DNA of 64,000 bases, taken from Thermoanaerobaculia bacterium. Lineage in GTDB: Bacteria; Acidobacteriota; Thermoanaerobaculia; Multivoradales; JAGPDF01. The position numbers were made by a program, and so were the translations under genes. The stretch covers positions 216,695-280,694 of the forward strand of contig OY969426.1 in the NCBI GenBank assembly GCA_963699245.1, read 5' to 3'. This document shows positions 10,919 to 50,511 of the stretch, piece after piece; the stretch's first letter is position 1, and every line of letters starts with the position of its first letter. The notes under the pieces are model-generated. The model was given only the letters and a program-made list of their open reading frames with translations. It had not been told where the DNA came from and made no database searches.

Positions 10919-10946
10919 TTGACTCTGTTCCCAAATTGGGTAGGAT
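10919..10946 (+). promoter_or_regulatory. Sigma70-like promoter (TTGACT-16 nt-TAGGAT) for the MNT/HEPN pair; predicts a near-leaderless mRNA
   Basis: TTGACT at 10919-10924 and TAGGAT at 10941-10946. ATG at 10957 with no Shine-Dalgarno in between. Confidence 0.45.
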
Positions 10947-10956
10947 CGTTCCCGAA

Positions 10957-11568
10957 ATGGGAAAGAAAAAGCCAAAGAAGGCGGCGAGCGGGCTGGCGGC
11001 GGCGCTGTTCTCGCCGGTGCAGCAGCGAGTTCTCGGGCTCCTCTTCGGGCAACCTGGGCGGCGCTTCAGGAGCGGGGAGATCATCGCGCTCGCGGGCAGC
11101 GGCACCGGCGCGACACACCGGCAGCTCCAGCGGTTGGCCGAGGCGGGGCTCGTCACCGTGACGCGCATCGGCAACCAGAAGCACTACCAGGCCGATCCGA
11201 AGTCGCCGATCTATTCCGAGTTGCACGGCCTCGCCGTCAAGACCGTCGGCCTCGTCGAGCCCCTTCGCGTCGCTCTCGCGCCGCTCGCCTCCAGGATCGA
11301 GAGCGCTTTCGTCTTCGGCTCCGTCGCCAAGGCGACCGACCGGGCGGCCAGCGACATCGACCTGATGGTGGTGAGCGACGAAGTCAGCTACGGCGAGGTC
11401 TACGAGGCGCTCGAGCGCGCCGCCCGCATCCTCGCCCGTCCGATCAATCCGACGGTTCGCACCCGGAGCGAGTGGCGAAAGGAGCTGGCCTCAGGTGACT
11501 CCTTCGCGAAGCGAATCGCGAGCCAGCCGCGGATCTTCGTGCTCGGGAGCGAAGATGCCGCGGCCTGA
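10957..11568 (+). CDS. wHTH + minimal nucleotidyltransferase (MNT-type antitoxin)
   Basis: LFSPVQQRVLGLLFGQPGRRFRSGEIIALAGSGTGATHRQLQRLAEAGLVTVTRIGNQKHY (winged helix), then FVFGSVAKATDRAASDIDLMVV (GS-x-DxD NTase motif). The ORF-track start at 10876 is probably too long given the promoter. Confidence 0.7.
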   Translation: MGKKKPKKAASGLAAALFSPVQQRVLGLLFGQPGRRFRSGEIIALAGSGTGATHRQLQRLAEAGLVTVTRIGNQKHYQADPKSPIYSELHGLAVKTVGLVEPLRVALAPLASRIESAFVFGSVAKATDRAASDIDLMVVSDEVSYGEVYEALERAARILARPINPTVRTRSEWRKELASGDSFAKRIASQPRIFVLGSEDAAA

Positions 11569-33913: not shown

Positions 33914-34597
33914 TTACTTCTTCTCGCGCTCCGCGAGCCAGGCGTCGAGCTCGGCGACGGCCTGGGCCATCTCGGGACCGAGCCGCGCGCGCTGCGCTTC
34001 GAGCCAGGCTCGGAACTCGGCGAGGAAGCCCTTCGCCGCCTTGGCGCTGTCGAGAGCCAGCTCCTCGTAGACCGCCTTCGCCTCGGCGACCTTGAAGGTG
34101 GCGAGGTAAGCGCGCCCCTTGCCGACCAGCGCCGCGGTCGATTTCTTGTCGAGCGCCAGGGCGCGGTCGAAGGTGGCGATCGCCTGGTCGAAGTGGCCGG
34201 ACTTGATCATCAGGTTGGCGAGACCGACCCAGGCGTCGACGAGCTTCGGGTCCTGCTTGAGCGCCGACTGGTACTCCTGGATCGCTTCTTCGAAGGAGGC
34301 CTTCGCCTTGTCGCGATACTCCTTCTTGTCCGCCTCGCTGGTCGCGGCGGCGGCCTTCTTGTCGAATTTCTCGGCCTGCGACACGGCGCGATTGCCGCCG
34401 GTGAGGTGCATCCGCGCCTGCTGCGCGGTGTTGAGCCCCTCGGGGCCGGTATTGATCGCGTTGTCCTCGGCCTCGTTCACTGCCGCGTCGGCCGGGCTCT
34501 CCTGCGCGGCGAGGGGAGCCGCCGTCGTGGCGAGCGCCAGGGCGGCGAGCAGTGCGAGAGCGAGAGAGAGAAGGGGACGAAGTGAGCGAGAGGGCAT
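33914..34597 (-). CDS. Secreted TPR-repeat protein
   Basis: ATG at 34597 with signal peptide LLSLALALLAALALATTAAPLAAQ. TPR-like AIQEYQSALKQDPKLVDAWVGLANLMIKSGHFDQAIATFDRALALDKK. Confidence 0.7.
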   Translation of the reverse strand: MPSRSLRPLLSLALALLAALALATTAAPLAAQESPADAAVNEAEDNAINTGPEGLNTAQQARMHLTGGNRAVSQAEKFDKKAAAATSEADKKEYRDKAKASFEEAIQEYQSALKQDPKLVDAWVGLANLMIKSGHFDQAIATFDRALALDKKSTAALVGKGRAYLATFKVAEAKAVYEELALDSAKAAKGFLAEFRAWLEAQRARLGPEMAQAVAELDAWLAEREKK

Positions 34598-34829
34598 GGG
34601 CGGGCTCCGGAGTGGGGGCGACTCGGCGGGGGATTCTCTCAGAGCCGCGGGCACGATCGAAGCGCTTCGGCTTCGGGTCTCCCGCCCGCCCGGGTGGCGG
34701 TTGCCGGCCGGGGCCGTGGTACCTCTTGCACAGGGCGCCTCGGGTGCGACGGTCAAGCAGCGCCGCCTGGAGTCAGGCGGCGCTCCTTTCCCCCCTCCCC
34801 GTTCTCCCGAGGCGCCTGTCGGGGAGCGC

Positions 34830-36788: not shown

Positions 36789-36797
36789 CGCCGGCCT

Positions 36798-38114
36798 TCA
36801 GCGCGCCACGATGGTGCGCAGCTTGCCACCCGGCGTGAGGGCGATGGAGTCGACGCGCTCGACCCGCGTCGGGCGAGGGGGAGCCACCAGGCGGTCGAAG
36901 ATCGTCGCGACCGTCTCGCGGTCGGCCGCCGCACGCGGCAGGTCGCGTTGGACGAGCAGGATCTGCAGGCTCCGGTCGGCCTCCTGGATTGCCTGAAAGT
37001 CGACCACGCTCGCCATCACCGGACGCATCGCCTCGACCGCCTGGCGCGGGCCGACGCTCGCACCGGCCGCCGTGCGGAGGACGTCGCGCGCGCGGCCCGC
37101 GACGGTGCCGAAGACCGGCAGCCCCCGCCCGCAGGAGCAGACCGTCGACTCTGGAGCGATCGCCCGGTCGCCGACCCGGTAGCGAAGGAAGGGCGTCGCC
37201 GGATTGTGCAGCGCGGTGAGCAGGACGTCGCCGGTCTCGCCGGGCGCGGCGGGGGAGCCGTCGGCGCGCACGATCTCGGCGAGGATCCCTTCGGCCGGGA
37301 CGTGCAGCGAGCCGCCCTCGACGCATTCGTGGGCGACCAGACCGGTCTCCATGGTCGCGTAGCGCTCGTAGACCGGGCAAGCAAAGGCCTCGCCGAGAGC
37401 TTTCCGGTAGTGCTCGTGCAAGTGGTTGCCGCCGCTCCAGCAGGCGCGCGCCGGCACGCGGCGCCCCTCTTCGATCAACGCGAGCGCCACCACATAGAGC
37501 GCGTTCGAGACTCCCCAGACGAGCGCCGGTGGATGGCGCTCGGCCGAACGAATGAGGCGCGCGACGACCCGGCGGTCCACGATCGTCGGCGCGTGCAGGG
37601 CGTCGGCATTGAGCAGGAGCGCCGAGAGCCGCTGGGCCGGCCCGACGGGACGGCAGCGCACTTCCAGCCGGCGCTCGCCGATGGCGGCACCGAGCCAGGC
37701 ATGGGCGCGCGCCTCGCAGGCGTCGCGCCAGCGCATCTCGGAGAGGGGCCAGAGAAAGTGCACCGGCCTGCCGAGCGAGCCGGAGCTGCGCGCCTTCATG
37801 CCCCAGCTCCCCGGAGCGCGAAGGCCGGCGAGGCCGAGACGTTCGACCTCCTCGCGCTCGAGGATCGGCAGCCGCCGCACGTCCTCGAGCGAGCGGAGAT
37901 CTTCCGGCGCGACCCCCGCCGTCGCGAAGCGCTCGCGGTAGAAGGGAATCCGCCGCGCGGCGGCGACGAGCTCCCGCAGGCGGCGCAACTGGAGCTCCTC
38001 GACCTTCTCGCGCGGCCACCATTGGCTCGCCTCGAGCAGCGCGAGCTCGGGGCCCGGGCGTGCGGGATGGGCGTACCAGAGGGGCCTGGCGATTCGTTCA
38101 CGCCAACCCGGCAT
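36798..38114 (-). CDS. PaaK/F390-synthetase-like adenylate-forming enzyme (CapK-like)
   Basis: ATG at 38114: ...QLRRLRELVAAARRIPFYRERFATAGVAPEDLRSLEDVRRLPILEREEV...ARSSGSLGRPVHF...YATMETG...LRYRVGDR. Intact, 438 aa. Confidence 0.7.
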   Translation of the reverse strand: MPGWRERIARPLWYAHPARPGPELALLEASQWWPREKVEELQLRRLRELVAAARRIPFYRERFATAGVAPEDLRSLEDVRRLPILEREEVERLGLAGLRAPGSWGMKARSSGSLGRPVHFLWPLSEMRWRDACEARAHAWLGAAIGERRLEVRCRPVGPAQRLSALLLNADALHAPTIVDRRVVARLIRSAERHPPALVWGVSNALYVVALALIEEGRRVPARACWSGGNHLHEHYRKALGEAFACPVYERYATMETGLVAHECVEGGSLHVPAEGILAEIVRADGSPAAPGETGDVLLTALHNPATPFLRYRVGDRAIAPESTVCSCGRGLPVFGTVAGRARDVLRTAAGASVGPRQAVEAMRPVMASVVDFQAIQEADRSLQILLVQRDLPRAAADRETVATIFDRLVAPPRPTRVERVDSIALTPGGKLRTIVAR

Positions 38115-39631
38115 CAGATCTCCCTCTCTCCGCGTTCGAGCAGCGCCGTCCCCGAGAGTCCTTCGAGGTCGGCGCCGAGCAGCGCGCAGGCGGTGGCGCC
38201 GAGATCGGTGAGCCGCGGCGGGCGGCCGGGATCGAGCGGCCGCGCGCGGGCGGGCAGCAGGAGCGCCCAGGCGTCGTCGACGTGGTTTCCCGAGCGCCCG
38301 CTGCCGACACCGTCGCGCGCGATGTTGCCGAAACGCGGCGAGCGGACGCGGTCGGCGCCCGCCGCCGGCCGGTCGTTCCAGAAGACGACGAGGTCGGGAA
38401 GCCCCGCCGAGTAGCTCTCGCCGCCCGCGATCTCCGACATCGGCAGGACGCGCTCGACGGTGCGCGTGCCGTCCGGTTCGAGAAAGGTGTTCAGTCCCTC
38501 GGCGATCTCCGCCGCCAGCGCCTGGACCGAGGCGGGATCGACGACGCCGTCGCGCTCGCGCCCACCGAGGTTGAACCGGATGTAACCCTTGTTCTCGCCC
38601 GGCACCGCGATCGCGCGTGGCGGCGGGCCGGCGCGCCGCAGGTAGAGGCGGGTCGTGAGGTCGGCGACGAGATCGTCGGGGAGGGCACGCGCCATCCGGG
38701 AGCGCCAGCGTGCGGGCACCGACGCCCGCAGCTTCCAGATCGGCGAGCGTGGCGCCGCGCTCGCCGGGCGCCGCCCGCCCGCCAGGACAGCGTCGAGCAT
38801 GGCGGGAAGGATGTCGGCGCGGCTGGTGTTCGCCGCCATGCCGGTGGGCGAGAAGACGACCAGGTCGGCGTCGGACGGCAAGGCGGCGACGATGCGGCCG
38901 ATCGCCGCGTCCACCGCGACGTAGACCTCCTCGATGGCGCGCCCCAGCGACTGCTCCGCCGCCGCGTCGAGCGGCTCGTCGATGACGCTGCTGGCGTCCC
39001 AGAACTGGTGCCCGGCCTTGTGCGCGGCGGGGAAGTTGACCCAGACGAAGTCGAAGCTCTCCCGCTCCAACAGGGCCAGGGTGGCGTCGGCGGCGCGCCC
39101 GGGGGCGGCCGCCAGGTGGCGTCGCCACTCGAGCAGCGTGGCGACGCTGCGCGTGCCGTAGACGTCGTCGAGGGGAGGCGGCGGACCGAACCGGCGCGCC
39201 AAGTCGCGGCGGACGGAGCGAGGAAGGGCGCGGTTCTGCAGCACCATCCGATCCTCGAAACCCCAGCCGCAGAGATAGACACCGGCCATTTCGCGCGGGG
39301 GCCAGGCGAGAAGCGGATCGACGATCAGCGAGCGCCGCCCGGCGCGGCCGAGGCGTTCCCAGATCGTCTCCGGCTTGTCGAAGGTCTGGGCGAAGCGGGC
39401 GCGCTGCTCGGCCGCCGACCAGAGGAAGGCCGAGTAGATACCGTGCCGGCGGACGTCGATGCCGGTGCAGAGCGTGGGGTAGGTCGCCGATTGCAGGATG
39501 GTGGCGCGCGCGTCGAGGCTCTGCCAGTCGCCGCGCTGGCGGAGGCCGGCGAGCGCCGGCAGACGGCCTGCGGCCAGCAATCGTTCGACGAGCGGAAGCG
39601 CGGGTGAGTCGAACTGCAGGAAGACCAGCAT
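38114..39631 (-). CDS. Alkaline-phosphatase-superfamily protein (type I phosphodiesterase / nucleotide pyrophosphatase-like)
   Basis: MLVFLQFDSPALPLVERLLAAGRLPALAGL...SATYPTLCTGIDVRRHGI (NPP-type metal-Asp and nucleophile-Thr region), VWVNFPAAHKAGHQFW, VVFSPTGM, SGNHVDD. The stop overlaps the next ATG by 1 nt (TGATG). Confidence 0.65.
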   Translation of the reverse strand: MLVFLQFDSPALPLVERLLAAGRLPALAGLRQRGDWQSLDARATILQSATYPTLCTGIDVRRHGIYSAFLWSAAEQRARFAQTFDKPETIWERLGRAGRRSLIVDPLLAWPPREMAGVYLCGWGFEDRMVLQNRALPRSVRRDLARRFGPPPPLDDVYGTRSVATLLEWRRHLAAAPGRAADATLALLERESFDFVWVNFPAAHKAGHQFWDASSVIDEPLDAAAEQSLGRAIEEVYVAVDAAIGRIVAALPSDADLVVFSPTGMAANTSRADILPAMLDAVLAGGRRPASAAPRSPIWKLRASVPARWRSRMARALPDDLVADLTTRLYLRRAGPPPRAIAVPGENKGYIRFNLGGRERDGVVDPASVQALAAEIAEGLNTFLEPDGTRTVERVLPMSEIAGGESYSAGLPDLVVFWNDRPAAGADRVRSPRFGNIARDGVGSGRSGNHVDDAWALLLPARARPLDPGRPPRLTDLGATACALLGADLEGLSGTALLERGEREI

Positions 39632-39636
39632 CGTCG

Positions 39637-41226
39637 TCACTCCGCCAGCGTCCGGAGGGCCGGGATCTTGCCGCCGGCGGTGGCGTGGGGAGCGTCGCGC
39701 AGGACGCGCAGCGTCTGTCCCTCTTTCCAGACGTCCGCCATCAACCGCTGTCCGGCGCCGCGGGCGCGCAGGAAGGCGAGGACGCTTTCGACGACACGTC
39801 GCTCGTCGAGCTCGCCGACCTCGGGGCGCACCAGGAGGCTGACGACCGGCAGGCCGTCCCGCTCCCGTTCGAGGAGCTGATAGTCGGTCGGGCGGCCGCC
39901 GAAAGTGGCCGGCAGATGATCCTCGACGAGGCCGAGCAGGTCGACGCCCAGCAGGTGCATCCCTTCGCTGGTCAGTTTCTCGTAGCTGCGGATGGTGTGC
40001 AGGCGGGTTCGGAAGCCCGCCGGCAGCGCACCGCAGCCGCAGTCGCTCGGTTCCCGCACGCCGGTGTCGCCGCTCTCGACGTTGATCATCAGCTTCGGCG
40101 AGGCCGGGTGCAGCGTCGTGTGGACGAGGGCCGGCAGCTCGACGCCGAGGGATCCGAAACGGCGCGGTCGCTCGATCGTCGCGACCTTGTCGTCGAGCAG
40201 GTGGACGGCGTCGGGCTGTCCCGCGGCGCAGCAGGCGAGGCCGATCAGGCCCGCTTCGGTCATGGCGTAGTGGCAGAAAGCCCGGCTGCTGGTGCGCGCG
40301 ACGACTTCCGCGCGCGCGGCGGTGTAGGGCTCGCCGACCAGGACGAAGAGCGTGTCGCGGATGTCGAGCCCCTCGTCGAGCGCGGCGGCGCAGACGCGCA
40401 CTCCACCGCTGACGGTCGTCGAGAGAAGCGCCGGCGTTTCCTGGTCGCGCTGCTGCGCGAGCCAGCGGGCGATGCGCGCGGCGGCGCGGGCAGGCGCGAA
40501 CTCGGGCGTTGGCAGGGGAGCCCCGGCGAGCCGGCTGGCGAGCAGCGCGGCGCGGGTGAAGAGCGCGTGACGCAGCTCGCTGTCCTGCAGCCGGTTCTGC
40601 GCGAACCAGCGCTCGGCCGGCTGTCCGAGGCGAGCCTGAATGAGGGCGCACTTGAGGCCGACCGCGCCGGGCGGCGCCAGGTGCCAGATGCCGACCGGGC
40701 GGCCAGTCGCTCCGGCGGCGGCGAGGAAGAGCGCGTGGTAGGCGCTCTCGTGCTCGAGCAGGTCGAGATCGACGAGCACCGCGCGCGCCGCGCCGGTCGA
40801 GCCGCCGGTCTGCGCGGCATAGTGCCGGCGGGTGAGCGGGTTGTCGAAGTCCCCGGCGTGCGTGTCGAGGTCGAGGCCAGGGCGCGCGATCGGGCTTCGT
40901 CCCTTGAACTCTTCGAGCGAGAGACGAACGCCGGCATCGTGGAGCTTCTCGAGCGTGGTCTCGAGGCCCTCCGTCGCGAGCAGGGACTCGATGTCTCCCG
41001 GCGTCACGCCGGCCCAGGCGAGCAACCGGCGATAGGGACTGCCGGGCCGCTCGTGGACGGCGAGGCGAAGGAGGTCCGCGAAGGCGGACTCGCGCTCGGC
41101 AAGGCGGCGCTCGAGCCGCGCGCGCGGATCGCCGGAAGCGGCGGGTCGGGCGAGAAAGGGGCCGAGTCCGCGCAGGAATTCCCCCGCTGAGCGTAGCTCG
41201 CGGGCGCGCGCGCGGACTCGCATCAT
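39637..41226 (-). CDS. PaaK-like / acyl-protein-synthetase-like adenylate-forming enzyme (second copy, divergent)
   Basis: ATG at 41226. AAQTGGSTGAARAVLVD (A3-like core), YAMTEAG, IRSYEKLTSEGMH. Intact, 529 aa. Only 5 nt separate it from the downstream ATG. Confidence 0.6.
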   Translation of the reverse strand: MMRVRARARELRSAGEFLRGLGPFLARPAASGDPRARLERRLAERESAFADLLRLAVHERPGSPYRRLLAWAGVTPGDIESLLATEGLETTLEKLHDAGVRLSLEEFKGRSPIARPGLDLDTHAGDFDNPLTRRHYAAQTGGSTGAARAVLVDLDLLEHESAYHALFLAAAGATGRPVGIWHLAPPGAVGLKCALIQARLGQPAERWFAQNRLQDSELRHALFTRAALLASRLAGAPLPTPEFAPARAAARIARWLAQQRDQETPALLSTTVSGGVRVCAAALDEGLDIRDTLFVLVGEPYTAARAEVVARTSSRAFCHYAMTEAGLIGLACCAAGQPDAVHLLDDKVATIERPRRFGSLGVELPALVHTTLHPASPKLMINVESGDTGVREPSDCGCGALPAGFRTRLHTIRSYEKLTSEGMHLLGVDLLGLVEDHLPATFGGRPTDYQLLERERDGLPVVSLLVRPEVGELDERRVVESVLAFLRARGAGQRLMADVWKEGQTLRVLRDAPHATAGGKIPALRTLAE

Positions 41227-41363
41227 GAGCGGAGCACTCCGTTCGACTCGGGATCTGGAGGAATCGCTCGCGATGATACTCTGCGCCGATCCGATTCCGT
41301 GCTGGTGAGAGCGGAAGTCCCGCGACTGGGCCGCCGGGCCTCGTCCCGGCGGGAGGAGAAGGG

Positions 41364-42167
41364 ATGACCTCCGCGCTGTCCGCAAGTTCCCGCTACTGGG
41401 ACGAGACGATCCATCGAGTCCGGGACGCCGCTCCGAGCGGCGCCTGGTACCCGTATATGCGGCGGGTGTACGGAGCGCTCGTCGGCGACTGGCTGGCGCC
41501 GGACAGGGGTCCGATGCTCAAGACCGACCTGTTCGAGGAGGCCGTGAGCGCGCATCATCCGCTGCTCGACCTCGGCGAGCAGGCCATGGGCATCGACCTT
41601 TCGCTGCGCACCGCTCGCTTCGCGCGGCGGCGAGCGCCGTCCGCGGCGAGATCGCGTCTCCTGGTCGCCGATCTGCGCGCGCTCCCGCTCGCCTCGAACT
41701 CGCTGCCCGGAATCCTCTCCGGCTCGTCGCTCGATCACTTCAGCGAGCGCCCGCACCTGGTCGAGGGCCTGCGCGAGCTGGCCCGCGTGCTCGCTCCCGG
41801 CGGCACTCTCCTGCTGACGCTCGACAATCCCCACAATCCGGTCGTCTGGCTTCGCAATCGGCTCCCATTCGGCCTGCTCGAGAGGCTCGGCTTCGTGCCC
41901 TATTTCGTCGGCGTCACGCTCACGAGGGCGGAGGCGGAACGCGAGCTGGCCGCCGCGGGCCTGCGCGTCGTCGAGCGCCGCGCGGTGGCCCACGCGCCGC
42001 GTGTACCGGCGATCTGGGCGGCGAAGGCCGTGGCCTGGCTGGGATTGGGGGAGGAGCCGCTGGTCGCGTTCCTCGTCGCCTTCGAGCGGCTCGCCGGCTG
42101 GCCGACCCGCTTCCTGACCGGCTACTACCTCGCCTTTCGCGCGATCAAGGACGAGGCTCCGGAGTGA
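41364..42167 (+). CDS. Class I SAM-dependent methyltransferase
   Basis: GGAGGAG RBS. LLDLGEQAMGIDLS (motif I-like), ADLRALPLASNSLPGIL, LAPGGTLLLTLDN. Divergent from the ligase operon (137-bp spacer). Confidence 0.65.
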   Translation: MTSALSASSRYWDETIHRVRDAAPSGAWYPYMRRVYGALVGDWLAPDRGPMLKTDLFEEAVSAHHPLLDLGEQAMGIDLSLRTARFARRRAPSAARSRLLVADLRALPLASNSLPGILSGSSLDHFSERPHLVEGLRELARVLAPGGTLLLTLDNPHNPVVWLRNRLPFGLLERLGFVPYFVGVTLTRAEAERELAAAGLRVVERRAVAHAPRVPAIWAAKAVAWLGLGEEPLVAFLVAFERLAGWPTRFLTGYYLAFRAIKDEAPE

Positions 42168-42780
42168 CCGCCGGCGCTTCGGCCTTCGGCGGGTCGATCA
42201 TGATGTGCGCGCCGGCGGTGCCGGGGAACATCAGCCAGGGGGCGCCGGGCGCCGAAGGGGAGAGCGGCAGGCCGGTCGACTCCTGGGTGGCGTAGGGGAT
42301 GTAGACGACGAAGCGGAGGTAGGCGTCGTCGACCGTGCCGGTCGCCGCATCGTAGCCCTTGCCGGTCAGGACGTAGAGAGTCGCCGGAGTCTTCGGCATC
42401 GGCAGCGTGCCGGCGTCGGTCTCCTGCCAGCGGCGCATCATGCGGTCCTCGCCCTTGATTCCCTGGGCGACCAGCTCGCGGCCGCGCTTCATGAAGGGCT
42501 CGAGCGAGACGTGGTAGCAGGCGACGCTGAAATGGTCGTCGCCGGGCGTGTCGGCGAGGCAGATCAGGTCGTTGGTGCCGGCGCGTAGGGTAACCAGCGC
42601 GCCCGCCGGGTCGTAGCCGAGCACGGTGGCGCCGGCGCGGCGGTCCTCGGGCGCGGCGAGAACGGCGGCGGCGATCTGCTGGCCGGCGGGCGGGGGCGCG
42701 GGCGCCGCCGCCCCGGATCGATTCGCGGCGCCCAGCCCGATCAACGCGAGCAGCGTCACCACCGTCGTTCTCGTCCTCAT
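42145..42780 (-). CDS. Secreted hypothetical protein (paralogue 1)
   Basis: GAGGA RBS and signal peptide VVTLLALIGLGAA. QQIAAAVLAAPEDRRAGATVLGYDPAGALVTLRAGTNDLICLADTPGDD. Confidence 0.6.
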   Translation of the reverse strand: MRTRTTVVTLLALIGLGAANRSGAAAPAPPPAGQQIAAAVLAAPEDRRAGATVLGYDPAGALVTLRAGTNDLICLADTPGDDHFSVACYHVSLEPFMKRGRELVAQGIKGEDRMMRRWQETDAGTLPMPKTPATLYVLTGKGYDAATGTVDDAYLRFVVYIPYATQESTGLPLSPSAPGAPWLMFPGTAGAHIMIDPPKAEAPAVTPEPRP

Positions 42781-42802: not shown

Positions 42803-43381
42803 TCAGTGCACCGGCACCATCAGGTGCTCGTAAGGGGTGTCGGCCCACATCACGTAGGGCGCGGAGGTGTCCGGCTCTGCAGCGCGCGGATAACCCGCCA
42901 TCATCGTGGCGGCGCCGACGATCATCAGATGGGGCCCGGTCTTGACCCAGTGATTGTTGGGAGCCGGCGCGGCGGCGTAGGGGTCGGTGTTGCTGGCGTC
43001 GGTGCCCCCTTCGAGCATGTAGATCATGCCGACCTTGCCCTGCGCCGGCTGCAGGTGATTCAGCCAGGCGCCGATCCACGCCATCGCGTTGGCGTCGGCG
43101 CACATCGGGTCGGGTCCCGGCGTCGCCGGGCTGTCCGGAAGGCAGGTCCAGCCGTTCGTCCCTTTGCGGACGGTGCGCTGCGTGCCGTCCTCGTTGAAGG
43201 CGATGATCGTCGCGGCCTTCGTGATGGTCGCCGGGGCCGCTTTCATGGCACTGGCGATGATCTGGTCGTCGCTCGGCTTCGCGGCGCCCTGCGCCGCGAG
43301 CGGCGCCGCGGCGGTGAACGCCGCGACGGCGACGAGGGTCGTGAGGACATCGGAAACCGACAACACACGAGCGTCGCGCAT
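42803..43381 (-). CDS. Secreted hypothetical protein (paralogue 2)
   Basis: AGGAGG RBS, then ATG at 43381. Signal peptide LTTLVAVAAFTAAAPLAAQ. DQIIASAMKAAPATITKAATIIAFNEDGTQRTVRKGTNGWTCLPDSP shares the pattern QII-A--AAP...GTN--CL-D-P with its neighbour. Confidence 0.6.
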   Translation of the reverse strand: MRDARVLSVSDVLTTLVAVAAFTAAAPLAAQGAAKPSDDQIIASAMKAAPATITKAATIIAFNEDGTQRTVRKGTNGWTCLPDSPATPGPDPMCADANAMAWIGAWLNHLQPAQGKVGMIYMLEGGTDASNTDPYAAAPAPNNHWVKTGPHLMIVGAATMMAGYPRAAEPDTSAPYVMWADTPYEHLMVPVH

Positions 43382-43475
43382 CCTGACCTCCTGATTCGGT
43401 TGTGGGGCTCGAAAGCAAGCTAGCACAGCTGGCCGGCGGAAGGAGCGCCGGTCCGAGGAGTCCGGGTGCCGGGAG

Positions 43476-45635
43476 CTAGTGCCAGGTGAATTCGAGCCGG
43501 TCGACGTCGACGGCGGCGCGGCCGCCGGGCGGGTCGGCGTCGACCCGGAGCTCGAGCTCGTCCCCCGGCCGCCAGTCGACCGGCGCCAGCTTTTCGACCC
43601 GCCAGGAGTCGCCCGGCGCCACTCTCCAGGCGCCGAGCCGGCGATCGCCGCTCGCGAGCTCGAGCGTCGTCCCGCCCGTGCTTCCCGGCGCGGCGCGGAA
43701 GCGCGCCGCGACCACGACCCGATCGCCGCCGGGGATCGGCCGGAGGGAGGCGGCCTGGGCGCCGAAGAGCCGCCAGCCGCCGGTGAAGCGGGTGCGGTCC
43801 GGCATCCAGCGATCGGGCTCGAGCGTGCCGCCGCCCTTGTAGACCCAGGGATCCTCGAGCTCGGCGACGCGGGTCGGCAGCTCGTGCGCCGCGACGATCG
43901 CGGCGGCGCTCGCCAGCAGCAGCGCCGCCGCCGCCGGGTTCCAGGCGTGCCGGGTCGCGCCCGGTGCGGCGCGGCGTGCCAGGAGCACGAGGGCGAGCGC
44001 GACCGCCGGGAAGAGCCAGGTCGCGAGGCGGGGACGAATCATGCTCGGCAGCAGGCGCGCGAAGTCCGCCCGGAACGGCGCCGTGGCGAGGTCGAGCAGC
44101 TGCGTCCGCCCGTCGGCGAAGCTCAGCGACCAGCGAGGCTCGATCAGCGCGGCGAGCGCGAAGGCGGCGCCGGCGCCGAAAAGCGCCGCGTGGAAGAAGC
44201 GCTCGATGGGGCGCGGCGGGCGGGCGAGCTCGGCGGCGAGCGCCGCGGTGAGCAGCGGCAGCAGGACGATGCCGAAGCGGAAGGGGGGACACCAGCCGCC
44301 GTACCACTCCCGGATCGAAGTCACGAGCAGAAGATAGGGAACGAAAGCGGCGAAGGCCCAAAGGGCCTCGCGCCGCCGCCGGAGGAGCAGCGCCGCGCCG
44401 GGAATGGCGAGGAACCAGAAAGGGGCGCCGCCCGCGAGGCCGAAAGCGCTGTCGAAGAAGAGGCCGGCGATGCGCGGCAGGTTCGCCAGCGTCGGGAGGT
44501 CGTCGGCGATCCAGCGCGAGAGGTCGTAGACGCGGAGCAGCCGTCCGACGCGGCTCCAGTTCCAGAGCATCGCGAATCCCGCCGCCGCGCCGACGCCGAG
44601 CAGGGCGAGAGCGCGCAGGCGCGGCGCGACGGCGCGCCGGAAGAGCGCCTGCAGCGCCAGCGGGCCGGCGAGGAGCAGGAAGCGCAGCTTGAGGAGGGGG
44701 AGCAGCAGGAGCGCCAGAGCGGTCGTCAGCGCTGAGCGGGCGCTCTGGCGCGGCGCCACCTCCGGCCGCCTCGCCAGCGCTTCGAGGGCGATCGCCACGG
44801 CGAGCGCGGCGAGGACCTCGAGCCAGACGGTGTGGGCGAAGAGCAGCAGCGGCAGCAGGAAGCTGGCGGCGAGCCAGGCGCGGAAGGCACCGCGGCCGGG
44901 CACGCTCCAGGCGATCGCGGCGCGATAGAGACGCTCCGAGAGGAGCGCCCAGACGAACATGAGGGCGAGGCGAACGCCGAGCGTTCCGCCCGCCGCCCAG
45001 AAAGGGGCGAGGAAGACCGGAAAGAGCGACTCGTGGCGCGAGTAGATCTGGCCGGCGGGACCGAGCGGGTCGCCCGGCTGCGGCGCGAGGGGCCGCGGGG
45101 CGATACGGCGCCAGACGTCGCCCCGATATTCGTCGCGCAGGTCGAAGTCGTGGTCGCTCGCCACGCTCTCGGCGAGGAGGAGATAGTAGGGCTCGTCCCC
45201 CGCCGGCACGGCGACGGCGTCGACCCAGGGCAGCACCGCGAAACCGGCGGCGAAGGCGGCGAGAGCGAGCGGACGCGTCGATCCTCTCGCCACCTGCCGC
45301 CGCAGCGCCGGCAGGTGGCTGCGGAGCCGCCAGGCGACCAGGAGCACGAAGCCGCCGAAGAGATAGCGCGGTGCGGCGGCCCGCAGACCGAGCTGGGGCT
45401 CGAGCAGCGCCGCGAGGATCCATGCCGGCCAGAGCACGCGCTCGGCAGGGCTCCAGCGCCCTGTCCTCTTGCCTCCCACCGTCTGGCGCAACGTGGCGAA
45501 GAGCGCGGCGGCGAGCGGCAGCCCCCAGAGCGTCGCGCGCAAGCCGGGATGGAGATCCCGCGGCAGCAGCCAGGCGGCGGCGATCGTCGCGGCGAGGCCG
45601 CCAAGGAAGGGCGCGGCGCGCCGCAGGAGGAGCAC
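43476..45635 (-). CDS. Polytopic membrane protein, GT-C-fold glycosyltransferase-like (PMT_2/GT39-like) with C-terminal soluble beta-rich domain
   Basis: GTG start. More than 10 hydrophobic segments. First-loop acidic motif GDEPYYLLLAESVASDHDFDLRDEY. The C-terminal ~170 aa are non-hydrophobic (WVYKGGGTLEPDRWM...VDVDRLEFTWH). Intact, 719 aa. Confidence 0.55.
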   Translation of the reverse strand: MLLLRRAAPFLGGLAATIAAAWLLPRDLHPGLRATLWGLPLAAALFATLRQTVGGKRTGRWSPAERVLWPAWILAALLEPQLGLRAAAPRYLFGGFVLLVAWRLRSHLPALRRQVARGSTRPLALAAFAAGFAVLPWVDAVAVPAGDEPYYLLLAESVASDHDFDLRDEYRGDVWRRIAPRPLAPQPGDPLGPAGQIYSRHESLFPVFLAPFWAAGGTLGVRLALMFVWALLSERLYRAAIAWSVPGRGAFRAWLAASFLLPLLLFAHTVWLEVLAALAVAIALEALARRPEVAPRQSARSALTTALALLLLPLLKLRFLLLAGPLALQALFRRAVAPRLRALALLGVGAAAGFAMLWNWSRVGRLLRVYDLSRWIADDLPTLANLPRIAGLFFDSAFGLAGGAPFWFLAIPGAALLLRRRREALWAFAAFVPYLLLVTSIREWYGGWCPPFRFGIVLLPLLTAALAAELARPPRPIERFFHAALFGAGAAFALAALIEPRWSLSFADGRTQLLDLATAPFRADFARLLPSMIRPRLATWLFPAVALALVLLARRAAPGATRHAWNPAAAALLLASAAAIVAAHELPTRVAELEDPWVYKGGGTLEPDRWMPDRTRFTGGWRLFGAQAASLRPIPGGDRVVVAARFRAAPGSTGGTTLELASGDRRLGAWRVAPGDSWRVEKLAPVDWRPGDELELRVDADPPGGRAAVDVDRLEFTWH

Positions 45636-45728
45636 GGCGCAAGTCTATGCGCGGGTGAGGTGCGCACCGCTTACAAGCGGGGCACGCGGGAGAGAGCCGG
45701 GCGCACGGTAGACTCCGCGTCCCGGCTC

Positions 45729-46997
45729 ATGACGAAGAACTTCGCTGCGGCGCGCGCGCGCCCCGATCTGGTTTCGCAGCCGGTCGGCGACGAATGCGTG
45801 GTCTACGACCCGCGCGCCGACACGGTTCACGTCCTCGATCCCCTCGCGGCGCGGGTCTGGTTCGCCCTGCTGAGCGCCGGGAAGGGGGACGCTTCCGCCA
45901 GCGAGGGGCCGGAGATCGGCGACGCGGAGCGTCGCGAGGTGCTGCGCGGCCTCGACGAGGCCGGACTCCTCGAGCCCGGCGCGAGCGATCCGGCCGACGG
46001 CTCCTACGGCGCGGCGCTGGCGCGGATCCGGCGCGGCGACGTCGAGGGCGCGGTCGCGATCGTCGCGGCGCGCGTCGCGGCGGCGCCCGGCGACGTTCCG
46101 GCGTTGACGATGCTCGGCGCCACTCTCTTTCTGGCCGGCCGGGTGGAGGCGTCGGCGGCCACGCTGGAGCACGCGGTCGCGCTCGATCCCGGCGCCGCTT
46201 CGGCCTGGAGCCATCTCGGCAACGTGCGGCGTCGGCAGCAGCGCGAGAGCGAGGCGGCAGCCTGCTACGAGCGGGCGCGCGCCGTCGACCCGGCGCACTT
46301 CGACGCCACCTGCAATCTCGCCGCGCTGCGCGCCGGGCAGGGGCGCGCCGAAGAGGCGATCGCCCTCTGGCAGGAGGCGAGGGAGCGCCACCCCGCAGCG
46401 CCTCATCCCAGCGTCAGCCTGGCGCGGTTTCACGCCGAGCGAGGCGACCTCGCCGCCGCCGAGAGCGTGCTGCGCGAGACGATCGCGCGGGCGCGGACCG
46501 GCGCCGAGCTGCACAACGCGCTCGGCGTGGTGCTGGCGCAGGCGAACCGCGCGGACGACGCGCGGCAGGCGTTTCGCACTGCCATCGATGCCGGCGGCAG
46601 GCTCGTCGCGGCGCGGCTCAACCTGGCGCAGCTCGAGGCCGCGGCCGGCGACTGGAGCGCCGCGGTGGAGCTGGCGCGCGAAGCGCTCGCCCTCGATCCC
46701 CGTCACTCGGCGGCGCGCGTGCTGGCGGCGCGCGGACTCTGGCGGCTCCGGCGCCGCGCGGAGGCGCAGGCTCTGCTGCGCGAAGGTCTCGACCGTGACG
46801 AGAGCGCCCTCGCCTGCGCCGACGCGCTGGCCGACCTGCTCGAGCGGGCCGGCGAGCGCGGCGAGGCGATGCTCGTCGTCGCGCGCGTCGCGCCCCGGCT
46901 CGCCGGCCGCGACCTGACGCCGTGGCCGCGGCTGGCCGCGGCGCGCGAAAGGGCGGCGGAGCTGGCGCGAAGCTCGGCGAATGCATCCGGCGGCTGA
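45729..46997 (+). CDS. PqqD-like (RiPP-recognition-element) domain fused to TPR repeats
   Basis: ATG at 45729: RPDLVSQPVGDECVVYDPRADTVHVLDPLAARVWFALL...REVLRGLDEAGLLEP (PqqD pattern), then ~8 TPR-like repeats (AWSHLGNVRRRQQRESEAAACYERARAVDPAHFDATCNLAAL...). Intact, 422 aa. Confidence 0.7.
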   Translation: MTKNFAAARARPDLVSQPVGDECVVYDPRADTVHVLDPLAARVWFALLSAGKGDASASEGPEIGDAERREVLRGLDEAGLLEPGASDPADGSYGAALARIRRGDVEGAVAIVAARVAAAPGDVPALTMLGATLFLAGRVEASAATLEHAVALDPGAASAWSHLGNVRRRQQRESEAAACYERARAVDPAHFDATCNLAALRAGQGRAEEAIALWQEARERHPAAPHPSVSLARFHAERGDLAAAESVLRETIARARTGAELHNALGVVLAQANRADDARQAFRTAIDAGGRLVAARLNLAQLEAAAGDWSAAVELAREALALDPRHSAARVLAARGLWRLRRRAEAQALLREGLDRDESALACADALADLLERAGERGEAMLVVARVAPRLAGRDLTPWPRLAAARERAAELARSSANASGG

Positions 46998-48108
46998 CCC
47001 TCCGGAGCGTTATCGGATGCTCGGCGTCGCGGTCGAAGTGACGGGCCGCGCGGCCGGATCGCGCGGAACCTTCGCGAGCATCTACGGCGCCTTTCGCGAC
47101 AATTCGAGCGACGAGATCGCGGACCCGCTGCGCTTCGAGCTCGAGCCGCTCGCGGGCGGCGCGGGCTGTGCGGTCGCGATCAGCGGGCGGGGATCCGGCC
47201 AGCGCCTCGCGTGGCAGGCCGAGCCCGAGCAGCTCTGCCTTCATCTCGCGAGCTACGTCTATGCCGTCTCGCCCTGGCGGCTGGTTCACGCCGCGGTGCT
47301 GGCGCGCGACGGCCGGGCGCTCCTGCTCTGCGCGACTTCGGGCACCGGCAAGTCGACGCTCGCGCTCGAGCTGGCCCGCCGGGGCTTCGAGCTGCTCTCC
47401 GACGAGCTGGCGCCGATCCCCCCCGGCGCGGGCGTCGTCGAGCCCTTCCCGCGCGCCGTCGGCCTGCGCGCAGGCACACTGGCCCTGCTGCCCTGGCTCG
47501 CCGGCGCGGCAGGAATCCGCCTGCCGAACGCGAAGGGAGAATTCAAGCTCTTCGTCGACCCGGCCGCGGTGCCCGGCCTCCGCGTCGGCGGCGCCGCGAC
47601 GCCACGCGACATCGTCTTCCTGGCGCTGCCGCGGGATCCGGCCGTCGCCGCGGAGGAAGCCGGGCGAACGCTCGAAGTGACTCTCGGCGAAGGAGCCGAA
47701 GCCGCCGGCGAAGAGCTCGCGCGTCTGCCCGGCGTCGAGGCGGCGCGGCGTCTCGCGGATCGGGACCTGCCGACGTGGCGACTGCGGGTGGCGCGCGAGG
47801 CGGCGATCGGCGAGGCGCTCGAAAGCTGGTCGCGCCGCGCGGGCGCTCCGTTCGTCGCTTCGCGGTGGGGAGCGCACTTGCCGCCGCGGTTCGCCGGCGA
47901 GCCGGTGGTGGAACGGCTCGCCGCGTCGGCGGGGCTCCTCGAGCTGCAACGCCATCTTCTCGGCCGGGCGCGCGCCGCCGGCGCGGGAGAGCCCTCCTCG
48001 CCGGCGCGGATTCTGCTCGACCTCGCCGCCGCCTGTCGCGACGCGCGCTTCTGGCGCGTCGAGAGCGGCAGCCTCGCCGCGACCGCCGAGCGCCTGGCCG
48101 CGCTCTGA
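46981..48108 (+). CDS. HprK-related kinase (HPr kinase C-terminal-domain-like P-loop protein)
   Basis: Overlaps the upstream gene by 17 nt. LVHAAVLARDGRALLLCATSGTGKSTLALELARRGFELLSDELAPI matches the HprK-type P-loop context. Intact, 375 aa. An alternative start at 47017 is possible. Confidence 0.65.
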   Translation: MHPAADPPERYRMLGVAVEVTGRAAGSRGTFASIYGAFRDNSSDEIADPLRFELEPLAGGAGCAVAISGRGSGQRLAWQAEPEQLCLHLASYVYAVSPWRLVHAAVLARDGRALLLCATSGTGKSTLALELARRGFELLSDELAPIPPGAGVVEPFPRAVGLRAGTLALLPWLAGAAGIRLPNAKGEFKLFVDPAAVPGLRVGGAATPRDIVFLALPRDPAVAAEEAGRTLEVTLGEGAEAAGEELARLPGVEAARRLADRDLPTWRLRVAREAAIGEALESWSRRAGAPFVASRWGAHLPPRFAGEPVVERLAASAGLLELQRHLLGRARAAGAGEPSSPARILLDLAAACRDARFWRVESGSLAATAERLAAL

Positions 48109-48130
48109 GTCCCTGACCCCGGCGACGAGA

Positions 48131-49822
48131 ATGCGTCCCGAAGCCCTGCGCGCGGCGGTGCTCGCGATCTGGAAGCAGGAAGGCCGGGTCGACCTCGTGC
48201 CGGTGCGCGGTGGCAGCATGCGCCCGCTGCTGCGCGAAGGCGACCGGGTCGTCGTCCGCTTCGGCGCGCCGCACCGGCTGCGCTTCGGCGAAGTCGTCGT
48301 TTTCGAGCGCGACGGCGGCATCGTGGTGCACCGCGTGCTGGCGCGGCGCACCGTGGCGGGAGTGCCGCGGATTCTCGAGCGCGGCGATGCCGGCGCGGCG
48401 GCGACCTGGATCGCCAGCGCGTCGATCGCGGGCGTGGTGATCGGCCTGGAGCGGGAGGGGAACGACCGGCGGGCGCTCGAGGGCACCGCGGGGCGCTGGC
48501 GGCGCGCGCTGCGCAGCTTCGCCGTTGCGGCGCTTCTGCGCACCGGCTGGCGGCGGCGCCGAGCAAGGCCCGCCCGCGCGGCGAGTGCGGCAGGAGATGC
48601 CGCCTTGCCCGTCGCCTTGCGCGACAGCGCGCTCGAATTCCTGGTGCGCGGCGCGCTCGGGCTCGGCTGGGAGGAGCCCGATCCCGCGCCGACGCCGGAG
48701 CAGTGGCGTCAACTGCTCGCGCTCGCCGAGCGCCACCGCGTCGGCGCGCTGCTCTGGAACGGGCTCTCGCAGCGGACCTCGGCGGCGCCTCTGCCGCCGG
48801 AGGTCGCGGAGGCGCTCCGGAAGCAGGCACTCGGCGCCGCGGCGCGCAGCGCTCGCTGGCTCGCCGAGGAGCTGCAAGTCGGCGAGGAGCTCGATCGGCT
48901 CGGGATCGAATGGATGGTGCTCAAAGGGGCGCCGATGGCGGAGCGGCTTTATGGCAGCGCCGCGCTCCGGCCGAGCGACGATCTCGACCTGTTGATTCAC
49001 GAAGAGGACGTCGAGCGCGCGGTCGCGGCGCTCGAGGCGCGCGGTTATGTGCCGCGCGAGCAGGCCACCGCGTCGCGCCGTCGCGCCTGGCATCACCAAG
49101 TCATTCTCGACCGCGCCGCGGCGGGGGGCTCGCTCTGCCTCGAGCTGCACTGGACCCTGACCGATCGCTTCGGACTCGTCTGGCCGGACGAGGCGGCGGT
49201 CTGGCGGCGTTCGTCCTCGCACCGGATGGACGCGGTCGACGAAGCGCTCTTCCTCGCCGTCCACCTCGACAAGCACGGCCTGCTCAATCGTGTCCTGCTG
49301 CCGGGCGACGATCCCGCGTGGGCACGCCGCTTTCTGCTGCACCCGCGCAGCGAGAACCGGCTGCTCTGGTTCGCGGACCTCTGGCGAGCGCTCGATGGCG
49401 TGGCGAAAGCCGGGGCCCTGGAAGAGCTCGCCGACCGGGCACGGCAGTGGAATGCGACGGCGGCGCTCGCGAGCTGCCGGGTCGCGCTCGATCGTCTCTC
49501 CTCGGGCGCCATGCCCGCAGCGTGGCGCGATCTCGGCCCGCTCGACGGAGCTCGTCGCCGCGGCGCGCGAGTGCGCTACCGCCTGGTCATGGGAGGGGCG
49601 CTACCGTATTTGCCGCCCGCACAGGGGCGGAAGCCCTGGCTGCTGGAACGGGGAGGCGTGAGCGGCTTCCGGCCGCTGAGGCTGGCTGACGCGCTGCGCT
49701 ACGCGGTCCCGCCGGCGTCCTACCTGCGCGCGCGTTACTCGCGCGACGGCGGAAGGGCGCCGATGCGTTGGCTACGACACCTCGGCTCCGTCGTCGCCGA
49801 AATGGTTCATCTCTTGAGCTGA
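48131..49822 (+). CDS. Fusion: S26/S24-type serine peptidase domain + PF14907-like uncharacterised nucleotidyltransferase
   Basis: N-terminus VPVRGGSMRPLLREGDRVVV...GEVVVFERDGGIVVHRVL...ILERGDA (archaeal/ER-type signal-peptidase-like GSM...HRV...GDA). C-terminus WMVLKGAPMAERLYGSAALRPSDDLDLLIHEEDVERAVAALEARGY...LELHW (NTP_transf_5-like). Intact, 563 aa. Confidence 0.65.
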   Translation: MRPEALRAAVLAIWKQEGRVDLVPVRGGSMRPLLREGDRVVVRFGAPHRLRFGEVVVFERDGGIVVHRVLARRTVAGVPRILERGDAGAAATWIASASIAGVVIGLEREGNDRRALEGTAGRWRRALRSFAVAALLRTGWRRRRARPARAASAAGDAALPVALRDSALEFLVRGALGLGWEEPDPAPTPEQWRQLLALAERHRVGALLWNGLSQRTSAAPLPPEVAEALRKQALGAAARSARWLAEELQVGEELDRLGIEWMVLKGAPMAERLYGSAALRPSDDLDLLIHEEDVERAVAALEARGYVPREQATASRRRAWHHQVILDRAAAGGSLCLELHWTLTDRFGLVWPDEAAVWRRSSSHRMDAVDEALFLAVHLDKHGLLNRVLLPGDDPAWARRFLLHPRSENRLLWFADLWRALDGVAKAGALEELADRARQWNATAALASCRVALDRLSSGAMPAAWRDLGPLDGARRRGARVRYRLVMGGALPYLPPAQGRKPWLLERGGVSGFRPLRLADALRYAVPPASYLRARYSRDGGRAPMRWLRHLGSVVAEMVHLLS

Positions 49823-49930
49823 TACCGGCAGGCTGCCGAGATCCGACGGGACGGCGTCAAGGGAGATTCGCCGGCATCGTGAGCGTGACCGCGCACCCGT
49901 TGCTCGTTTCCGCGGGGCCGACGGGCCGCC

Positions 49931-50419
49931 TCAGACGTCCGGGATCTGGTAGGTGACGGTGCAGGTGTTGCTGACCACGTCGCCCGCGATCGGCGTCGCG
50001 CCGTGGCCCGGCGCATGGCCGACGTGGGCGAAGACCCGCGCGGTATTCGAGATCTCGCCGGACCCGAAGCCCTGGTCGAGCTCCTTCGACGTCGTTCCGG
50101 CAGCGAGCTCGTAGGAGAGGTCTTCGGTCACGAAGCTCGAGCTGCCGATGTCCATCTGCACCCGATAGCCGGTCTCGGCGGCGAGGTCGTTCCAGACGAA
50201 GTGCGCCTGCACGACGCCAGCGGCCGCGTTCTGGTCGTCGGCGCTCTGGTCGACGACGGTCGAGCCGCAGGGCAGCGTGCCCTGGGCACCCTCGAGGCCG
50301 AGCGTGAGAACTTCGTACTGCGCCTCGGCGGGACCGAGAAGGTTTCGCAGGCCGGTCGGAGTGTAGCTGCAGATGGCACGCTCAGCGTGCGTGCGCGGGT
50401 TCACGGCGTCGTCTCTCAT
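49931..50419 (-). CDS. Hypothetical protein, no recognisable family
   Basis: AAGGAG-N5-ATG at 50419. 162 aa, beta-rich-looking, no signal peptide (MRDDAVNPRTHAERAICSYTPTGLRNLLGPAEAQYEVLTLGLEG...TCTVTYQIPDV). The ORF-track version (49931-50950) has an implausible Arg/Pro-rich N-terminus. Confidence 0.55.
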   Translation of the reverse strand: MRDDAVNPRTHAERAICSYTPTGLRNLLGPAEAQYEVLTLGLEGAQGTLPCGSTVVDQSADDQNAAAGVVQAHFVWNDLAAETGYRVQMDIGSSSFVTEDLSYELAAGTTSKELDQGFGSGEISNTARVFAHVGHAPGHGATPIAGDVVSNTCTVTYQIPDV

Positions 50420-50511
50420 CGAGGCTCCTTCGTCCAGCAGGACGAGCTCGCGCAAGGTATCGAGCCGACGGGAGGTCGTCAAGGAAGCGCGCCGCTGTCC
50501 ATCCGGCGTTC

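Follow-up and report, generated by a model that had tools for sequence, protein, structure and literature searches.

A PqqD-TPR, HprK-like kinase and S26 peptidase-PF14907 gene trio associated with a family of small leader-bearing Ig-like proteins in a Thermoanaerobaculia bacterium

We have analysed a stretch of 64,000 nucleotides of contig OY969426.1 (assembly GCA_963699245.1) from a Thermoanaerobaculia bacterium, hereafter the window, whose positions are counted from its first nucleotide. The work is centred on three packed co-directional genes, named here g1, g2 and g3, that encode a PqqD-like protein with tetratricopeptide repeats (TPR), an HprK-like kinase and a fusion of an S26-type peptidase to a PF14907 nucleotidyltransferase (NTase). 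A preliminary description, made from the sequence alone, had proposed them as a candidate cassette for the modification of peptides or proteins. By analogy with studied relatives, the trio and its partners most likely tag, trim and perhaps glycosylate small proteins of antibody (immunoglobulin, Ig) fold. The module that they form is rare, conserved and undescribed, and a literature search found no paper on a PqqD/HprK-like kinase/S26-PF14907 system.

The gene trio and its conservation

The g1 (45729-46997; 422 aa), g2 (46981-48108; 375 aa) and g3 (48131-49822; 563 aa) genes are all located on the forward strand, each as an open reading frame (ORF) at these positions. Read directly from the sequence, g1 and g2 overlap by 17 nt and g2 and g3 are separated by 22 nt, in agreement with the packing first described. 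The g1 and g2 genes also overlap, by 8 nt, in two of the orthologous loci presented below (L001 and L003), and the spaces between the trio genes are of 0-22 nt across the loci.

The g1 gene encodes a protein with a PqqD domain, or RRE (the recognition element of RiPPs, peptides that are ribosomally synthesized and then modified post-translationally), at residues 1-85 (45729-45983, + strand), followed by a TPR array at residues ~90-400 (45996-46928, + strand). Many TPR families match residues ~90-390, with a best E of 5e-20, and exactly this protein has been called in a public collection (P0006). The window copy alone gives a faint PqqD signal with TIGR04353 (E = 0.009, 16.9 bits vs a cutoff of 35), the sole PqqD model touching g1, and PF05402 is "weak" in two orthologues. 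When a profile of the N-termini of four orthologues was compared with two bona fide PqqD proteins, hhalign gave a probability of 95.8% (E = 8e-9, 88 columns), and thus the full-length match to the PqqD family is obtained at the profile level and not by the window copy alone. The latter lacks 12 residues at ~47-48, within the helical part of the domain, that are present in all three orthologues. The N-terminus of g1 can be assigned as a PqqD/RRE domain, solidly so at the profile level, with a putative role in peptide binding, and the PqqD-TPR architecture anticipated for this protein is upheld.

The g2 gene encodes an HprK-like P-loop kinase that contains the Walker A motif SGTGKST at residues 120-126, as well as family-specific N- and C-terminal extensions. 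Its best curated model is TIGR04352 (E = 1.6e-17, 63.5 bits vs a cutoff of 200), with ~68 residues around the P-loop aligned; PF07475 matches with E = 1e-4, and its precomputed family is PF27840 "ScmC". The best PDB match by sequence is HprK (1jb1, E = 0.026), in an alignment that spans H103, the P-loop at 120-126 and the S-D141-E segment. The residues H103, G121, G123, K124, T126 and D141 are invariant in 8 homologues. Therefore, the HprK-type P-loop noticed previously is confirmed, with the Walker A motif, the upstream His and the downstream acidic residue all present and with HMM (hidden Markov model) scores below the family cutoffs. The public gene call of g2 starts at Met13 (P0011, 363 aa). 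Since the residues before Met13 (Y-R) are conserved in the orthologues, and g1 and g2 overlap in L001 and L003 too, it is likely that g2 starts upstream of Met13 and has the longer, overlapping 375-aa form.

The g3 gene encodes a Sec11/archaeal-type S26 domain without membrane anchor (residues 1-110; 48131-48460, + strand) and a PF14907 NTase-fold domain (residues 189-449; 48695-49477, + strand). The PF14907 match reaches 146.1 bits (gathering threshold, 31.2), and G266, D284, D286 and E338, i.e., the G...DxD...E pattern of NTases, are invariant in four orthologues. The N-terminus matches the archaeal signal peptidase I model TIGR02228 (E = 9e-8, 32.2 bits vs 51.85), human SEC11A (7p2p, E = 0.008), PF00717 (22.5 bits vs a cutoff of 23.3) and, faintly, TIGR02754 (SodX, E = 0.014). 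The curated S26 HMM cutoffs are not reached and no hydrophobic membrane-anchor segment was found in this N-terminus. Ser29, His67 and Asp86 (in GxSMxP, VHRV and GD) fall in the SEC11A register and are invariant in the four orthologues. The fusion first proposed for g3 is thus borne out, and its S26 domain appears to have an S26-like mechanism and not to be a canonical signal peptidase. As the triad is kept and the anchor is lacking, this domain should be active as a peptidase in the cytoplasm. The same S26-like domain is found in a more distant locus (L005) as a separate gene adjoining PF14907, with 43% identity to residues 3-86 of g3. The S26-like peptidase is a recurrent partner of PF14907, fused to it in the window lineage. 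In the standalone copy of L005 (12190-12597), a Cys replaces the nucleophilic Ser (GSCMAP vs GGSMRP), and the His and the Asp are retained.

A word-based search in 5.8 billion proteins returned only two full-length g3 and two g2 homologues, with 45-47% identity. From the contigs of g2 and g3 homologues, plus one contig reached via the small protein described below, we have obtained three further independent metagenomic trio loci, i.e., L001/L002 (seen also as L010/L011), L003 and L004. The order g1-g2-g3 is kept in all three, with 45-52% identity to the window, and thus the arrangement is beyond chance, which answers the synteny question raised by the preliminary description. A metagenome scan added only L009, and look-ups by exact identity for g2, g3 and P0001 returned no record. 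Among 185,579 GTDB species representatives, the g3 query detected only a 29%-identical NTase-domain match, in a Thermoanaerobaculaceae metagenome-assembled genome (L008). L009 and L014 are close relatives of the window, with 84% protein identity in g3 and, in L014, 86% DNA identity in the guaA region.

The small Ig-like proteins, the membrane enzymes and their surroundings

The conserved unit exceeds the trio. It is a module of six gene families in which the trio is the cytoplasmic core, accompanied by a membrane protein of 711-719 aa, a membrane protein of 431-433 aa and small proteins of ~160 aa. The idea of a three-gene cassette holds in that the trio is conserved, and it falls short in that the unit also has, in the window, a membrane glycosyltransferase-like gene and a 162-aa protein and, elsewhere, the 431-433-aa partner.

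The 162-aa protein (49931-50419, - strand) is the candidate substrate. The preliminary description listed it for testing and stated that no convincing precursor was found; this statement needs correction, since the protein belongs to a multi-copy, leader-bearing family. The family comprises 17 clusters with lengths of 150-186 aa and one 298-aa variant. No match was found in Pfam or in the PDB by sequence, and relatives are absent from the same 185,579 GTDB representatives. Weak matches to lytic polysaccharide monooxygenases and to PorA also appeared in the searches. An AlphaFold2 (AF2) model built from 17 sequences has a mean confidence (pLDDT) of 87, with a sandwich at residues 40-162 that is predicted confidently (88-98) and low-confidence residues 1-35. 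The comparison of this model with the PDB and BFVD using Foldseek gave only generic similarity to Ig and fibronectin type III (FN3) domains.

The window copy has a leader at residues 1-33 (50321-50419, - strand), ending in LGPAEA, and an Ig-like core at residues 34-162 (49934-50320, - strand), starting with QY. Across the family, the leader has 22-36 aa, of which the first 2-16 are variable and the rest conform to [IV]-x-[ST]-aromatic/L-x4-[LIV]-x2-[LR]-L-G-P-A-E-A|Q-Y. The motif is found in 24 of 24 distinct copies, with Gly-Pro, Glu, Gln (+1) and Tyr (+2) invariant. At the junction, position -3 is Ala in 23 copies (Val in one) and position -1 is Ala in 22 (Thr in two), which fits the -3/-1 rule of S26 peptidases. 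With the invariant triad of g3, this junction supports the earlier suggestion that the S26 domain might take the place of the leader protease. In L004, a single leader precedes two Ig-like domains in tandem in a 298-aa protein (9108-10004). The second domain starts just past the QY position and lacks the LGPAEAQY motif, and the motif is therefore part of a separable leader rather than of the fold. In the core, two Cys, the loop H-x-G-H-x-P-x-H-G and several acidic residues are invariant, and S93, S150, T83, T126 and T142 are invariant or near-invariant Ser/Thr. The window copy and its orthologue in L014 share 91% identity over residues 14-162, and their leaders differ at most of the non-motif positions.

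Small proteins are present at every trio locus that has enough flank. There is one copy beside the trio in the window, four in L001, one in L003 and at least two in L009. L004 has six called genes, including the two-domain one, plus two fragments, and one of its copies is placed between g2 and g3. In L009 and L014, two to three or more tandem small-protein genes lie between g3 and guaA, in the interval equivalent to 49823-50511 of the window, with three tandem copies in L014 at the position of the single copy of the window. Tandem multiplication with rapid turnover is typical of precursor or cargo genes, and the co-occurrence of a leader-bearing ~160-aa family with the trio favours the protein-sized substrate, rather than a short peptide, that had been suggested. 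In a groundwater contig (L012), two identical small-protein genes (114-569 and 2718-3173) flank a PhdYeFM/PIN toxin-antitoxin pair.

The gene divergent from g1 (43476-45635, - strand) encodes a 719-aa polytopic membrane protein with a glycosyltransferase C (GT-C) fold. The 93-nt intergenic region between both genes (45636-45728), read from the sequence, is presumed to be a bidirectional control region; a promoter and terminator scan was uninformative, with no sigma-70 consensus found. In L003 and L004, the divergent intergenic region beside g1 has 46-52 nt and is located between g1 and the 431-433-aa gene. Orthologues of the 719-aa protein (711-719 aa, 46-51% identity) adjoin the trio in L001, L003 and L004, so that in all four of the long loci the GT-C gene and the trio are neighbours. 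Sequence searches of this protein gave nothing in Pfam, NCBIfam or two PDB profile searches, and an exhaustive search of its family retrieved 1759 representatives at E ≤ 1e-3. Its AF2 model, from a 49-member alignment (pLDDT 92.7, predicted TM-score 0.93), is most similar by Foldseek to EmbC (7bvh, E = 4.7e-7, probability 1.0), followed by EmbB, EmbA and AglB (3wak). Residues ~590-718 form a C-terminal beta-sandwich that resembles a carbohydrate-binding module (CBM), and these 130 residues match CBM36/CBM6 (1w0n, TMt 0.79, E = 3.8e-5). D147 (in GDE), D161 and D163, located in the first large outer loop, after helix 121-141, are invariant in the 49 members. On the basis of this model, the protein is predicted to be a GT-C-fold glycosyltransferase.

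In the other loci, the 431-433-aa membrane protein is encoded just upstream of the gene for the 711-719-aa protein. A GT-C member with 35% identity (L015) also has a 433-like gene directly upstream, and therefore the GT-C/433 pair forms a unit within a wider family; none of the trio genes was detected in the short contig of L015. The module of the window may be a reduced version, having lost 12 residues of the PqqD domain, lacking the 431-433-aa partner and keeping a single small protein.

Concerning the rest of the window, which is part of a 3.8-Mb contig, its overall GC content is ~72%, and the segment 1-6000, with ~61% vs 70-77% across most of the window, may be acquired or otherwise distinct. 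The window encodes a TonB-dependent receptor, indicating that the source organism is diderm. A SAM-I/IV riboswitch aptamer (9054-9179, - strand; 42.5 bits vs a gathering threshold of 41.1) is the sole Rfam match. The gene at 10762-11565 (+ strand) encodes a Pol-beta-type NTase (PF18765/PF01909) unrelated to the trio, with a chance-level match to an S26 HMM (E = 0.007). The Sulfotransfer_3 protein (16885-17967, - strand; E = 9e-39), of a class cited in the preliminary description among the lasso accessories, is encoded 28 kb away from the trio. Its gene is not conserved near the trio in L001, L003 or L004, and it was not retained as a module member.

The region 34119-42167, for which no conservation with the trio is seen in other loci, may be a biosynthetic cluster of its own. 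It encodes an 889-aa protein with a C-terminal SDR (short-chain dehydrogenase/reductase)/epimerase domain, two PaaK/F390-synthetase-like adenylating enzymes (36801-38114 and 39640-41385), a type I phosphodiesterase (38117-39640) and an S-adenosylmethionine methyltransferase (41364-42167), all of them rejected as module members because they are unconserved in L001, L003 and L004. Two paralogous, apparently secreted proteins of ~210 aa (42145-42780 and 42803-43426, - strand; 36% identity over 74 aa) gave no match in Pfam or NCBIfam. They had been listed as candidate peptides, and with no counterpart in L001, L003 or L004, they were discarded as well. A PADLOC search for anti-phage defence gave no match.

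Proposed maturation pathway and alternative explanations

From the gene content, the domains and their conserved catalytic residues, the synteny, the copy dynamics, the leader/core architecture and the predicted folds we infer a substrate, a series of chemical steps, a cleavage site, a link from the cytoplasm to the GT-C enzyme and an export route. The PqqD/RRE domain of g1 would bind the leader and its TPR array would scaffold the enzymes. The g2 kinase would phosphorylate a conserved Ser or Thr of the substrate, and the PF14907 domain of g3 would place a cap, either a sugar or a nucleotide, on this phosphate or on a hydroxyl. A precedent exists in pseudomycoidin, where PsmK/PsmN make a phosphoserine and then add hexose. 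The preliminary description had expected a nucleotidylylation, and this expectation is weakened by the family precedent, in which PsmN places hexose on phosphoserine (PMC6993621). The anchorless S26 domain of g3 would cut the leader off after Ala-Glu-Ala. In addition, the Emb-like GT-C enzyme with its periplasmic CBM and the 431-433-aa partner would elaborate or attach a glycan at the outer face of the inner membrane; their target may be the product itself or a matching glycan on the outside.

The cluster may be a RiPP pathway in the general sense, since sequence and structure predictions place in it a candidate leader/core precursor, an RRE and a putative leader peptidase, with the peculiarity that the "core" is a folded protein. 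We judge the chances to be evenly balanced that the small proteins are the substrates of the trio, and we would place at the midpoint, too, the proposal that the six-family module matures this dedicated ~160-aa family. A more specific version, leader-guided protein phosphoglycosylation, would be the first RRE-dependent system on a folded Ig-like protein, with a cytoplasmic Sec11-type leader protease and with a phosphate-linked sugar, made by the kinase and the PF14907 domain, that the GT-C enzyme extends outside. This version is speculative and, taken as a whole, decidedly doubtful. If true, it would yield a surface glycan anchored to a protein, via machinery borrowed from lasso-peptide tailoring.

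Several observations weigh against the maturation of the small proteins by the module. Firstly, the 12-residue deletion in the PqqD domain of the window counts against it, and the 431-433-aa partner is absent from the window by tblastn and HMM searches. Secondly, the conserved C-terminal Ser of the paeninodin and pseudomycoidin substrates is absent from the small proteins, and the N-terminal third of their leader changes more quickly than the core, whereas classical RiPPs show the reverse. To our knowledge, these proteins are also far larger than any known RRE-dependent substrate. Thirdly, the leader is neither Sec- nor Tat-like, having no hydrophobic h-region and no twin-arginine motif, and no exporter is conserved in the module; a cytoplasmic product would thus have no evident connection with the periplasm-facing GT-C enzyme. 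Moreover, the GT-C/433 pair, within its family of 1759 representatives, may have an independent role, the L012 contig (3.2 kb) has small-protein genes with no trio gene in view, and the synteny could be partly inherited rather than selected, given the small number of loci and their possible origin in a single lineage. The phospho-acceptor, the export route and the GT-C connection are the weakest links of the pathway.

It is also conceivable that the trio acts on another target, such as a short peptide that escaped detection or, in an envelope polysaccharide pathway, a glycan or lipid-linked intermediate, the small proteins being accessory partners (lectin-like binders, chaperones or immunity proteins). 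Distant kinase/PF14907 pairs indeed occur at polysaccharide loci that have no small Ig-like protein. One of these loci, with two Wzy_C genes and an epimerase, is L005, which contains the nearest distant relative of the g2 kinase (38% identity over 180 aa), and its cassette includes a PqqD protein, a B2-like protein, an HprK-like kinase, PF14907, the standalone S26-like protein, an ScmC-like kinase, a second PqqD protein and a radical SAM-SPASM protein. In L006 and L007, PF14907 is paired with a kinase beside sugar-polymer genes (Bac_transf, Wzz and sugar-nucleotide enzymes), and the CBM-like domain of the GT-C enzyme suggests a glycan acceptor. However, the PqqD/RRE domain is an established peptide-binding module (PMC11626156), and the leader architecture with its AxA junction matches the fused peptidase. 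In addition, no other small ORF is conserved among the loci, the spaces within the trio are of 0-22 nt, and the copy number of the small proteins tracks the trio loci specifically. We consider another target unlikely, although it is the least improbable of the alternatives.

A secretion or assembly system of the SipW/TasA type would explain the same genes differently. The small proteins would be extracellular subunits of a matrix fibre, an adhesin or a coat, the S26 domain would be their private signal peptidase, the kinase and the NTase would regulate or energise export instead of decorating the cargo, and the GT-C enzyme would make the matching surface glycan. In Bacillus, SipW is a Sec11-type S26 peptidase dedicated to the beta-sandwich cargo of its own operon, TasA and TapA. 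The Ig/FN3-like fold, the multi-copy and fast-evolving cargo genes, the AxA-type junction at the end of the leader and the adjacent membrane GT-C enzyme with a CBM domain agree with this explanation. Nevertheless, the leader lacks both an h-region and a twin-arginine motif, the S26 domain is anchorless and fused to a cytoplasmic NTP-using domain, and it is difficult to see why the RRE, the kinase and the NTase would be conserved with their catalytic residues intact if no covalent modification took place, all of which makes such a system quite improbable.

Concerning lasso peptides, no Asn_synthase match was found among the window ORFs scanned, nor in L001, L003 or L004, and the only SGGxDS PP-loop in the six frames of the window is that of guaA. 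For the B2 protease, tblastn with the B2 protein of L005 gave a best E of 0.31 in the window, and no match to PF13471 is recorded in L001, L003 or L004. As for a short lasso-type precursor (roughly 40-60 aa), the only conserved family of leader-bearing ORFs is that of the small proteins, with their folded core. With these three defining features lacking, the locus is not a lasso cluster, and the absence of a cyclase and of a B2 protease claimed for the window extends to every orthologous locus. An ordinary lasso-peptide tailoring set, with cyclase, B2 protease and precursor elsewhere in the genome, is thus very hard to sustain: although lasso clusters are known to include HprK-like kinases and NTP-transferases as accessories (PMC8498205, PMC6993621) and L005 carries a true lasso B2-type protein (NF033537, 60.7 bits vs 33), neither an Asn-synthase-like nor a transglutaminase-like gene is found in the 64 kb of the window or in 10-21 kb around the three orthologous loci, L005 also lacks a cyclase, and other partners, the GT-C enzyme and the small proteins, are conserved instead. 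The domains of the trio have HMM support, its order is syntenic and no lasso cyclase or B2 protease is adjacent, the three points on which the preliminary description had declared beforehand that it could fail.

Comparison with known systems

HprK-like and PF14907 enzymes are widespread beside PqqD proteins. As far as we know, studies have been limited to their relatives in lasso tailoring, and no in vitro reconstitution of the PF14907 reaction has been achieved. PsmN, a presumed PF14907 member according to the literature, has a DxD motif that corresponds to the one kept in g3 (D284/D286). HprK-type kinases phosphorylate lasso precursors (PMC8498205, PMC6993621), and PsmN, the only studied NTP-transferase of a lasso cluster, targets the phosphoserine and adds one or two hexose units of 162 Da to the precursor phosphate, its D134A/D136A mutant being inactive (PMC6993621). 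In paeninodin and pseudomycoidin, phosphorylation comes first and the phosphate is then capped (PMC6993621). Some lasso clusters of Firmicutes have the equivalent NTase in a fusion with the B2 leader protease (PMC8498205), and thus a protease-NTase fusion is an established architecture, although the protease of g3 is non-homologous.

The module shares with the paeninodin and pseudomycoidin clusters (PadeK/PsmK, PsmN) the RRE, the HPr-kinase-like P-loop kinase and the NTase-fold enzyme with DxD. Unlike them, it has no lasso cyclase, B2 protease or ABC exporter, its protease is of the Sec11 serine type instead of a transglutaminase-like cysteine protease, its RRE forms part of a TPR fusion protein, it is linked with a GT-C glycosyltransferase, and its candidate substrate has a folded Ig-like domain of ~130 aa instead of a core of ~20 aa.

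The pairing of a PqqD partner with an HprK-like kinase is also found in HPr-rel-A (TIGR04352 plus TIGR04353) and in the ScmC/ScmD "SynChlorMet" system, on neither of which a publication was found in our literature search. The link with HPr-rel-A made in the preliminary description does not hold, since the scores of g2 (63.5 vs 200 bits) and g1 (16.9 vs 35 bits) are far below the cutoffs and the module is thus not the curated system. Further differences from HPr-rel-A are the additional domains at both ends of g2 and the fusion of g1 to TPR. The L005 cassette, for its part, has a B2-type protease and a stand-alone RRE of ~92 aa, and lacks both the small Ig-like family and the Emb-like GT-C pair.

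Among the S26 peptidases, SipW, of the Sec11/Ser-His type, and SodX, for nickel superoxide dismutase, are private enzymes encoded with their substrates (TasA/TapA in the case of SipW) that trim a short N-terminal extension. Compared with them, the g3 peptidase differs in being anchorless and fused to an NTase, and the small proteins in having no Sec-type signal. With regard to the membrane enzyme, EmbA/B/C (GT-C, GT53) also have a multi-helix GT-C domain, a periplasmic CBM-like beta-sandwich and an acidic first outer loop. The 719-aa protein is ~300 residues shorter than the Emb proteins, has no detectable sequence similarity to them, and the global TM-scores are low (0.32/0.24).

The module provides a clean test case, since its candidate substrate is defined, abundant and foldable, the leader junction is marked by a fused protease, and lasso machinery that might compete is absent. 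If the substrate assignment is true, RRE-guided chemistry would reach whole protein domains, beyond peptides, a non-homologous serine leader protease of the Sec11 type would join the RiPP toolbox, and a cytoplasmic phospho-modification could be linked to GT-C glycosylation. Furthermore, the module gives a context, and a role that can be tested, to two unannotated families, namely the small Ig-like proteins and the GT-C family with its roughly 1,800 representatives. By analogy, the module appears to resemble the kinase and NTase (K/N) tailoring branch of the lasso pathways, with a non-homologous leader protease, an RRE-TPR protein, protein-sized putative substrates and a GT-C enzyme.

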